From NCBI GenBank assembly GCA_034440235.1, contig JAWXBR010000013.1, positions 2,188 to 66,187 of the forward strand: a stretch of 64,000 nucleotides of DNA. Reading direction: 5' to 3'. The position numbers and the translations under genes were made by a program. Under the pieces are notes generated by a model. The model saw only the letters and a list, made by a program, of their open reading frames with translations, did no database searches and was not told the DNA's origin. The DNA is from a bacterium (lineage in GTDB: Bacteria > Bacteroidota > Ignavibacteria > Kapaibacteriales > Kapaibacteriaceae). Shown piece after piece: positions 16,430 through 17,530 of the stretch. Position 1 is the first letter of the stretch. Each line of letters opens with the position of its first letter.

Positions 16430-17530
16430 TCATGGGTTCTTCTTCGTCCACTCGGCCCATCCGCCTGTGTAGATGTAGATCGGACCGTATCCGAAGTTCT
16501 TTAAGACGTCGGCAACGCGATGACTAAGCTCGCATTCGCCACCATCACAATAGATGACGATAATCTTGTCGCGCTCAAACTTTATTAGACGTTGTATAAC
16601 GTCAGGCGACTCTGCTTCTGTGCCGTTGATGTTTGCCGCATTGCGAATGTGCCCTTTCTGATAGCTCTCTGGTATACGAGCATCGATGAGTGTCACACAG
16701 GGCATTTTAATAAAGGTTACGAACTGACCATACGAGATTTCTTTGACTACACCACTCTCGGCAACGAAGCAAGGGGCGGAAGGGGTCAGCTTTGCTGTGT
16801 CTACGCCGTTCTTCAGCGCGCGAGCTTTTGAGGTTATCAACGAATCGGCCAATCGCTTAGCTGCTAATGAAGAGTCGCGAGCCGACATCTTCAAACTCGC
16901 TGAAATGCCGCTTGGCTGCGTAGTTGAATCGGTACGCGTAGTATCGGACATCGTAGCAGACATCGCTGCGGGTGTCGATACGAGTGTGTCGCGTGTGTAT
17001 ACCGTGCGCACCCATTTTATGTGTTTGGGATTCAACTCGTTGTACCCATACGCAAGACCAATTGCTGCTACTAGAAAAATCGCTAGGTCGCGCCAAAACG
17101 TGCGACTCCAGTTTGCCGCATTTGTAATGCCGATAGTCGGAGATGTCGAATGTGTGCTCTGAGCTACGATGGATGTCGGCGCATGCTTCGACGTCATGTG
17201 ACCGAGTGGCTCACCGCCGAGAAGGTGGTAGTGTAAATGAAGTACCGTCTGGCCACCATCGTTATTAATGTTAGTAACGACGCGATAGCCAGAGTCCACA
17301 ACATTAAACTTTTCTGCTAACTGTTGCGCGACGTGAAAAACATGTCCGATAAGAGCGTGGTCTTCTGGTGCAATGTCGTTTACACTTCGAATTGGCTTCT
17401 TGGGAATGATGAGAATGTGAACAGGCGCAACCGGAGCGATGTCGCGAATTGCGATTACACTATCGTCTTCATACTCGATCGTAGCAGGGATGTCGCGATC
17501 GATGATTTTGGTGAACAGGCTTCGTTCCAT
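16430..17530 (-). CDS. Fusion of a HIT (Hint-type) domain, a TM helix and a rhodanese domain
   Basis: ATG 17530: SLFTKII...APVHILIIPK...GGQTVLHLHYHLLGG; TM LAIFLVAAIGLAYGY; LIDAR...GHIRNA...IYCDGGECELS...YTGGWAEW. One uninterrupted frame. Confidence 0.88.
   Translation of the reverse strand: MERSLFTKIIDRDIPATIEYEDDSVIAIRDIAPVAPVHILIIPKKPIRSVNDIAPEDHALIGHVFHVAQQLAEKFNVVDSGYRVVTNINNDGGQTVLHLHYHLLGGEPLGHMTSKHAPTSIVAQSTHSTSPTIGITNAANWSRTFWRDLAIFLVAAIGLAYGYNELNPKHIKWVRTVYTRDTLVSTPAAMSATMSDTTRTDSTTQPSGISASLKMSARDSSLAAKRLADSLITSKARALKNGVDTAKLTPSAPCFVAESGVVKEISYGQFVTFIKMPCVTLIDARIPESYQKGHIRNAANINGTEAESPDVIQRLIKFERDKIIVIYCDGGECELSHRVADVLKNFGYGPIYIYTGGWAEWTKKNP

Follow-up and report, generated by a model that had tools for sequence, protein, structure and literature searches.

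HinT of Escherichia coli (structure 3n1s), a member of the histidine triad (HIT) family, is a free cytoplasmic dimer of 119 amino acids. In mollicutes, the operon of HinT also encodes the P60/P80 membrane complex, to which HinT is bound non-covalently (PMC1173108, PMC539234). A HIT-family hydrolase can also be joined to a second enzyme in a limited clade, as in NitFhit and other HIT "Rosetta-stone" fusions (mentioned in PMC13257105); both domains of NitFhit are soluble and share one compartment, implying a shared pathway. Among rhodaneses, PspE of E. coli is a periplasmic single-domain protein, soluble, with one Cys and a basic loop, and active as a thiosulfate sulfurtransferase (PMC2593051). 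Mycobacterium tuberculosis DoxX, SseA, and SodA form a membrane oxidoreductase complex, which provides an experimental precedent for a DoxX–rhodanese partnership (PMC6930017). Here, a stretch of 64,000 nucleotides from an uncultured bacterium of the Kapaibacteriaceae (assembly GCA_034440235.1, contig JAWXBR010000013.1, positions 2,188 to 66,187; hereafter the window) was analyzed, in which one gene (P0001; 16430..17530, minus strand) joins a HinT-type HIT domain, a single transmembrane helix, and a rhodanese-like domain. The fusion is genuine and old; it has become fixed in a single family of uncultured Kapabacteria and is very rare elsewhere. The explanation that we consider probable is that an ancient fusion gave rise, in this one family, to a bitopic inner-membrane protein with HinT inside, the rhodanese-like domain outside, and the two halves working independently. 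Similar to the mollicute complex, a bacterial HinT would thus be held at the membrane; however, the mollicute partners are unrelated surface proteins associated non-covalently with HinT, whereas here HinT is covalently joined to its anchor. Similar to NitFhit, a HIT-family hydrolase is combined with a second enzyme in a limited clade, but here the membrane helix divides the domains. Two ordinary domains are combined in an undescribed, clade-restricted architecture, and the literature search returned no relevant paper on a HIT–rhodanese fusion or a Kapabacteria rhodanese.

The gene is an uninterrupted open reading frame (ORF) of 366 codons and a stop codon (16430-16432), starting with ATG and the N-terminus MERSLFTKII, and its translation is 366 amino acids long; all its parts given below lie on the minus strand. 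The HinT-type HIT domain, predicted to be cytoplasmic, covers residues 1-115 (17186..17530), as indicated by Pfam HIT (PF01230; residues 13-107, E 1.1e-22, 81 bits vs a gathering threshold of 21.5), by alignment with 3n1s, by Foldseek, and by a predicted local distance difference test (pLDDT) above 90. It contains the histidine triad H98-L-H100-Y-H102 (17225..17239), invariant in 86 homologues. A Ser/Thr-rich disordered linker follows (residues 116-138, 17117..17185; pLDDT <50), which falls in variable columns of two alignments (A1 and A2) and ranges among homologues from about 10 to about 50 residues between the HIT domain and the helix. The single transmembrane helix comprises residues 139-166 (17033..17116; pLDDT 83-96 in the AlphaFold2 model), is also detected by a hydropathy scan, and has a hydrophobic core at residues 144-162 containing a G-x-x-x-G motif (GLAYG); the mean Kyte-Doolittle hydropathy of this segment (19 residues) is 1.94 over the 86 homologues. 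Next comes a conserved juxtamembrane segment, YN-x-x-N-P-K-x-I-x-W-V-R/K (residues ~163-190, 16961..17032), in which N164 and W173 are invariant among fusions and the Asn is invariant among stand-alone relatives as well. A low-complexity Ser/Thr/Ala-rich tether of variable length and sequence (residues 191-253, 16772..16960; pLDDT 35-60, no conserved columns) leads to the rhodanese-like domain at residues 254-366 (16433..16771). This domain is recognized by Pfam (PF00581; residues 275-363, E 5.3e-19, 69 bits vs a gathering threshold of 22.2) and modelled with pLDDT >90, and its predicted periplasmic location is based on the Cys pattern and on the topology of relatives. Its active-site loop, C328-D-G-G-E-C333 (C-X4-C; 16532..16549), is conserved in fusions and stand-alone relatives. 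The AlphaFold2 model, built with the 86-sequence alignment, consists of two confident domains (1-112 and 255-366, pLDDT >90; the latter an alpha/beta fold), disordered stretches at 113-138 and 191-222, and the confident helix 139-166. Pfam, AlphaFold2, and the reading frame thus agree throughout with the initial annotation, made from the sequence without database searches, in which a Hint-type HIT domain with an HLHYH triad, a Ser/Thr linker, one transmembrane helix, and a CDGGEC rhodanese had been described at these coordinates. A longer ORF initiated at TTG and reaching up to 17701 was rejected as the gene because it runs into the 3' end of patatin-Omp85, the gene upstream, and because the homologues all begin at the M-E/D-K-S/T-I/L-F position, none using the TTG start.

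The same initial annotation had allowed that the fusion might result from a stop codon lost near GEPLGH|MTS, and it has to be considered first whether the frame could be an error of sequencing or assembly, or a recent, pseudogene-like read-through joining two genes of this genome alone. The whole protein was searched against the genome of the window and 40 related genomes, and each of the 24 further family members (8 genera) had a match, full length and in a single open frame wherever the contig is complete. Identity to the window's protein is 45-54% among family members and 67-81% inside the genus, summarized as 45-68% over the 24 sampled genomes, and the single frame recurs in about 140 protein clusters. 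Two seeming internal stops in family genomes are the genes' own stop codons, e.g., in G011, where the gene encodes an intact fusion of 326 amino acids. In an independent assembly, the fusion is called as one gene of 338 amino acids with the same patatin-Omp85 gene order. Because the same continuous frame is conserved across family genomes and independent assemblies, the fusion is considered genuine; with the frame present in independent assemblies of 8 genera and in many metagenomes, an artefact or a recent read-through is hardly conceivable. The frame is continuous where the lost stop had been suspected, and the Met after GEPLGH is the Met of the HinT tail. The spread of the architecture was assessed in two further collections. 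In one of 5.8 billion proteins, 146 matches (at 90% clustering) were obtained, nearly all of 316-385 amino acids and with precomputed HIT and Rhodanese domains; where names are given, they read "HIT domain-containing protein" and Candidatus Kapabacteria, and are automatic names only. A HMMER search, run with no word index, covered 1.84 billion representatives at 50% identity, and the best 150 of its 12,812 matches were examined. About five of these are fusion clusters, just 8 matches fall below E 1e-30, and the remaining ones match in one domain only. No HIT–rhodanese fusion outside the clade was present among the best 150 of the 12,812 matches, a scope that does not cover weaker, unrelated fusions. 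Two proteins matching in two stretches (P0177 and P0257) were considered as further fusions and proved to be tandem HIT repeats. For the initial annotation, two separate genes in relatives, together with a stop in the reads, would have refuted the fusion. Outside the family, the genes are indeed separate, but at distant loci and with a different Hint subtype; inside the family, the fusion is universal.

The HIT half aligns with E. coli HinT (3n1s) over residues 2-114 (E 7e-33, ~50% identity), that is, over the whole domain, and shares with it the triad, the nucleotide-site residues, and the fold. Foldseek gave a template modelling score (TM-score) of 0.94 on the target, a root-mean-square deviation of 1.1 A, and 50% identity. 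The motif His-x-His-x-His-x-x is present as H98-L-H100-Y-H102-L-L, and both proteins have the non-WPPG tail GG-x-P-L-G-x-M. However, E. coli HinT ends as a free protein, whereas the domain of the fusion runs on via the linker to the transmembrane helix and the second domain. The NCBIfam equivalog for purine nucleoside phosphoramidase (PRK10687) scores 118.8 bits, below its cut-off of 206 bits, and the half should accordingly be named HinT-type instead of an E. coli HinT equivalog. Across the 86 homologues, there is no variation in the triad, N87, G93, or Q94 and almost none in T95 and V96, and the HIT domain is the best-conserved part of the protein. No second Hint-type gene was found in this genome, in which there is only a weak second HIT protein, nor in the other sampled genomes of the family. 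The fused domain has the appearance of a HinT with full competence, the only one of the cell. This bears on the possibility that the fusion is neutral baggage of a one-time stop loss after insertion of hinT, with the HIT part dispensable or decaying. The variable disordered linker does hint at an unconstrained junction, and the HIT part is omitted from the gene as publicly annotated on this contig; however, the HIT domain is the best-conserved part and its catalytic residues are invariant in 86 sequences, it is the only Hint-type gene of these genomes, and disabling HIT mutations were not seen in any member, which makes this possibility very improbable.

In the sister families, one free Hint of ~115 amino acids with a WPPG tail is encoded at an unrelated locus beside a KpsF-like gene. 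In a maximum-likelihood tree of 116 columns, the fused HIT domains are monophyletic and grouped with non-WPPG Hints, and a branch with 100/89 support parts them from the WPPG-type Hints of the sister families. Vertical descent of the fused HIT domain from the sister-family Hint was tentatively rejected, as this tree separates the two. The tree tentatively suggests that a hinT-type gene was acquired and the resident Hint displaced. The public gene call of the window's contig, P0002, is a "rhodanese" of 255 amino acids, 100% identical to the fusion over residues 112-366. It starts at an internal ATG (Met112, 17195..17197), whose counterpart in E. coli HinT is the Met of the tail GGRPLGPM, and it leaves unannotated 111 in-frame codons of a complete HIT domain. 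The idea that a separate rhodanese gene starts at Met112, or did so ancestrally, was rejected, since this is the conserved HinT-tail Met and the stand-alone relatives begin 5-15 residues before the helix; no other conserved Met between the HIT domain and the helix was found in the homologue alignment. P0002 is probably a truncated call, a start-site miscall hiding the HIT domain.

The origin of the second half can be traced in the sister families of the same order, in which residues ~140-366 match a stand-alone protein of 165-290 amino acids. It consists of a short basic N-terminal tail (MKxxK...LRE), a hydrophobic helix ending in Y/F-N, a juxtamembrane motif (P..P-W/L-basic), a variable low-complexity tether, and a rhodanese domain with the loop Y-C-(D/G)-G-G-x-C-(E/D)-L-S-H. 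The fusion is homologous to this protein from the LRE motif through the C-terminus, and the HIT domain and variable linker stand in place of a few N-terminal residues. An alignment of 19 stand-alone relatives (A3) defines an unnamed family of signal-anchored C-X4-C rhodanese-like proteins, and all its features, i.e., the helix ending in Y/F-N, the P..W/L-basic motif, the tether, D-A-R, Y-C-x-G-G-x-C-x-x-S, and G-G-W, are found in the fusion; the motifs are invariant in both alignments. The loop reads Y-C-D-G-G-x-C-E-L-S-H without exception in the 86 fusions and Y-C-x-G-G-x-C-x-x-S in the 19 stand-alone relatives, and distant class-level homologues retain Y-C-x-G-x-x-C-[D/E/N]-x-S. As judged from these alignments, the rhodanese module predates the fusion and was originally a stand-alone membrane-anchored protein. 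Fusion and stand-alone rhodaneses share the juxtamembrane motif and the loop and, in Kapabacteriales, the same downstream activator gene; however, a HIT domain is missing from the stand-alone proteins, whose partner in other orders is MauE/DoxX and not the activator.

This pairing was found in other families of the class, where a gene for a MauE/DoxX membrane protein of ~150 amino acids lies directly downstream of the anchored rhodanese gene in 10 of 12 loci; the assignment of five tested downstream proteins to Pfam MauE/DoxX has E-values from 1e-25 to 3e-34. The rhodanese and MauE/DoxX pair (loci L044-L054) is often followed by a homocysteine S-methyltransferase-like gene and is conserved in other families of the class. 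In the window's genome, the MauE gene is unlinked to the fusion and lies beside a homocysteine methyltransferase-like gene (G000:C47:5013-5399; L056 1405-1902), an arrangement in which MauE and the methyltransferase-like gene appear to have stayed together while the rhodanese gene moved away. The partners also occur within single proteins. In one representative (P0155), an N-terminal anchor precedes three C-X4-C-type rhodaneses, which are followed by a MauE domain; in another (P0220), a TlpA-like redoxin and three C-X4-C rhodaneses are placed behind a cleavable signal peptide. No paper describing the MauE–rhodanese pairing was found in the literature search. The adjacency and the fusion of MauE/DoxX and rhodanese are paralleled by the DoxX-SseA-SodA complex, in which a DoxX-family membrane protein is combined with a rhodanese-family thiol oxidoreductase. 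However, SseA is cytoplasmic and has two domains, the likeness established here is one of fold alone, and MauE is unlinked in this genome.

The chemistry of the rhodanese half has to be considered separately from its fold. C328 takes the position of the catalytic Cys, first in a six-residue loop, as in true sulfurtransferases of the GlpE/PspE type. However, the basic anion-binding loop (C-R/K-x-G-x-R/T/S) is missing; the loop has Asp and Glu instead, and a second invariant Cys at its end. The NCBIfam equivalogs of PspE (30.6 vs 102 bits) and GlpE (27.4 vs 102 bits) both score below their cut-offs, the match to PspE thus being weak, and the same is true of the rhodanese-like tRNA U34 hydroxylase TrhO (29.3 vs 170 bits). 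The loop is one residue shorter than that of the TrhO-like structure 4f67 (C-T-G-G-I-R-C-E in TrhO). The best reading of the rhodanese half is that of a putative periplasmic thiol or persulfide redox module and not of a thiosulfate sulfurtransferase, because of the acidic C-X4-C loop and of the MauE, redoxin, and signal-peptide contexts of its relatives. Three more rhodanese-domain matches are located in tandem elsewhere in the window, at ~60955-61929 (ORF 61309-62847, minus strand); two of them lie inside an ORF of 512 amino acids and one is adjacent, with an internal TAA.

The initial annotation had cautioned that the helix would place the two domains on opposite sides of the membrane, and several indirect lines of evidence favor this arrangement. 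No N-terminal signal peptide was found before the HIT domain, and a folded domain of 115 amino acids precedes the helix. Exactly one strongly hydrophobic segment was detected by the hydropathy scan in 67 of the 86 homologues. In the stand-alone relatives, the homologous helix is an N-terminal signal-peptide-like anchor (MKxxKK followed by 19 hydrophobic residues). P0155 has an extra transmembrane helix, followed by RRLIDQK, between its last rhodanese and the MauE domain, and its MauE loops fit the positive-inside rule only with the rhodaneses and the C-G-C motif of MauE in the periplasm. The number of Cys residues in the rhodanese region is even in 84 of 86 fusions, and the extra Cys 254 and 278 co-occur in exactly the same 9 sequences, as a disulfide would predict; in the HIT region, 83 of 86 have 0 or 1 Cys. 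The long tether rich in Ser, Thr, Pro, and Ala fits a periplasmic leash. The rhodanese domain is most likely periplasmic and the HIT domain cytoplasmic, because the signal peptide is missing, the helix of relatives is anchor-like, and the helix count of P0155 and the Cys pattern point to this orientation. Among the library representatives, one protein (P0136) has a Hint-type HIT domain after a classical cleavable signal peptide and before DUF3471, and secreted Hint proteins may therefore exist in some bacteria.

MOCS3/Uba4 and ThiI combine a rhodanese with an adenylate-handling domain, and one could propose that both domains of the fusion are cytoplasmic, the helix being a peripheral or re-entrant anchor or an oligomerization helix, and that they share a substrate, e.g., with sulfur from Hint attack on a nucleoside phosphorothioate or adenylate passed to the rhodanese Cys. 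Hint1 does free hydrogen sulfide (H2S) from nucleoside 5'-O-thiophosphates (PMC8775712), and flank charges leave the orientation unfixed. Against this stand the homology of the helix to the signal-peptide-like anchor of the stand-alone relatives, the indication of a periplasmic rhodanese by the transmembrane helix count of P0155, the signal peptide of P0220, and the Cys pairing, the acidic loop, which would repel anionic sulfur donors, and a rhodanese module older than the fusion and with other partners. A cytoplasmic location of both domains is, altogether, quite unlikely. Of the coupling to H2S suggested in the initial annotation, the part concerning H2S release by Hint1 is correct (PMC8775712), but the coupling itself finds no support, the rhodanese being older, with its own partners, probably periplasmic, and with an acidic C-X4-C loop. 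Direct hand-over of sulfur from Hint to rhodanese appears unlikely because the domains would reside in different compartments and the rhodanese is older and has other partners.

The genes surrounding the fusion are also conserved. Downstream lies a gene for a sensor-less sigma-54 activator composed of AAA+ and HTH_8 domains (15145..16401, minus strand; Pfam Sigma54_activat 1.9e-70, HTH_8). Its Sigma54_activat domain starts at residue 19 and HTH_8 covers residues 375-415, without an N-terminal sensor domain; it scores 273 bits against the 443-bit cut-off of the PspF equivalog, and has GAYTGS in place of the canonical GAFTGA, relatives having GAFTGA, GAYTGA, GAFTGS, or GAYTGS. Throughout the order, in the family as in the sister families, the rhodanese gene is immediately followed and often overlapped by this same activator gene, and sigma-54 is encoded in this genome. 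A putative cyclase (PF04199; 14302-15105, plus strand) and SSB (13799-14230, minus strand) are encoded after the activator, and a relative with 48% protein identity has the same succession of genes (cyclase, SSB, MlaD, methyltransferase, VWA-OmpA), forming a long synteny block. Upstream, a patatin-like phospholipase fused to an Omp85 barrel is encoded (17613..20180, minus strand; Pfam Patatin 9.3e-33, Omp85 4.8e-14). It carries four tandem copies of VQNEKP(V/I) just after a signal-like N-terminus. Most family genomes have patatin-Omp85, a J-domain gene, the fusion, and the activator in this sequence. A small J protein of 118-149 amino acids usually precedes the rhodanese gene across the order (L003-L009, L031, L035, L039, L055). 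Its N-terminus forms a helix (MGQIFDRI...), an acidic motif reads DDELRRII, and the C-terminal part is a J domain, recognized as Pfam DnaJ and weakly similar to DjlA.

No J-domain homologue was found in the window's genome (G000). An 82-nucleotide spacer (17531..17612, minus strand) separates the patatin-Omp85 stop from the fusion start, at the position which in most relatives is occupied by the small J-domain gene. From this comparison, the J gene has apparently been deleted or lost in this genus, and in at least one other. The spacer contains three TTGTAA-type repeats, the last of which is TTGTAATTTGCC-N4-ATG, and these repeats could have been left behind when the J gene was deleted. In this genus, TTGTAATTTGCC-N2-4-ATG immediately precedes the fusion; in several other genera, it immediately precedes the J-domain gene. 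The motif may represent a compact promoter, with a transcript that is leaderless or has a short leader. Two candidate features upstream of the fusion were rejected. A conserved "peptide" starting MGSAP... results from reading the patatin-Omp85 gene, at its conserved 3' end, out of frame, and a GG-N10-GC element in the same 3' end, considered as a promoter, is unconserved across genera and tracks the W-G-P...L-A codons.

Signalling across the membrane can be proposed as an alternative. In this case, the periplasmic C-X4-C domain would sense thiol or sulfane-sulfur stress, and the signal would be transmitted via pairing of GxxxG helices to a HinT dimer, which would control the co-translated sensor-less activator, e.g., by binding or by removal of adenosine monophosphate (AMP). 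The activator has no sensor domain, so control in trans or through the expression level is needed, and its gene overlaps or abuts the fusion gene throughout the order. In E. coli, the sensor-less activator PspF and the periplasmic rhodanese PspE belong to one stress locus, psp, which resembles the arrangement found here in that a periplasmic single-domain rhodanese is encoded beside such an activator. The transmembrane helix and the juxtamembrane motif are strongly conserved, the fusion is kept in all 24 genomes, and HinT is known to bind AMPylated proteins (PDB 8v1y; PMC12375108). However, the sister families pair rhodanese and activator with just 5-15 residues of cytoplasmic tail, so no cytoplasmic output domain is required. 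Furthermore, the linker between HIT domain and helix is disordered and of roughly 10-50 residues, ill-suited to mechanical signal transfer. Also, no sigma-54 promoter was found near the cluster; the scan with TGGCACG-N4-TTGCW gave 21 matches vs 13.7 expected, none of them suitably placed. We therefore regard signalling of this kind as unlikely, though deserving attention. Rated slightly lower is the proposal of an undescribed envelope stress switch, in which a periplasmic C-X4-C sensor would act on the tethered HinT, alone or together with the DjlA-like J protein, and thereby gate the sensor-less activator. If true, it would be an envelope stress switch functionally analogous to PspA/PspF and made of entirely different parts.

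The probable explanation, an ancient fusion resulting in a bitopic protein with independent halves, can be put together as follows. In the ancestor of the family, a hinT-type HIT gene would have entered the locus between the genes of the J protein and the rhodanese and become joined, in frame, with the 5' end of the rhodanese gene, so that the few-residue cytoplasmic tail of the rhodanese would have been exchanged for a full HinT domain and a disordered linker. The WPPG-type Hint resident in the sister families is apparently absent after the fusion. The HinT domain, probably dimeric like E. coli HinT, would be held at the cytoplasmic side of the membrane on a flexible leash and would perform ordinary Hint chemistry, i.e., hydrolysis of nucleoside phosphoramidates and of acyl- or protein-linked AMP. 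The periplasmic rhodanese-like domain would carry out thiol or persulfide redox chemistry by Cys328 and Cys333 with a MauE/DoxX-type partner. The two domains would have expression and membrane location in common, but not the substrate. In this account, the unbroken frame and its conservation, the identity of both domains, and the stand-alone ancestor with its neighboring genes are shown directly, whereas the topology, the chemistry of either domain, and their independence are inferred. The gene is most likely an architectural curiosity rather than part of a new sulfur pathway.

Several points weigh against this explanation. The predicted template modelling score (pTM) of the AlphaFold2 model is 0.47, which makes the model uninformative on contacts between the domains. 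The net charges flanking the helix of the fusions are +1.6 on the N-terminal and +1.8 on the C-terminal side, and the positive-inside rule leaves the orientation undecided; in the stand-alone forms, the corresponding values are +1.6 and +1.1. The columns of the HIT tree include the tail remodelled by the fusion. The chemistry of the C-D-G-G-x-C loop is a prediction, and the closest solved structures, 6mxv, the TrhO-like 4f67, and BH2092 (also C-X4-C), are only distantly similar. Finally, retention in 24 of 24 genomes over deep divergence could reflect a functional coupling of the halves instead of co-location.

As both domains belong to textbook families, the fusion is mainly a point of annotation and evolution. 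For annotation, a gene-calling error is flagged, the public call from Met112 concealing the HIT domain. The fusion can also be considered a natural topology reporter, as a folded cytoplasmic HinT before the anchor argues that the widespread, unnamed family of anchored C-X4-C rhodaneses faces the periplasm. It adds a covalent example to the older observation of bacterial HinT associating with membrane proteins. Tracing of the ancestor revealed conserved partners of the anchored rhodanese, MauE/DoxX and, in Kapabacteriales, a J-domain protein and a sensor-less sigma-54 activator, and from these partnerships, hypotheses open to testing can be derived for MauE/DoxX and for bacterial Hint, both of which are poorly understood families.

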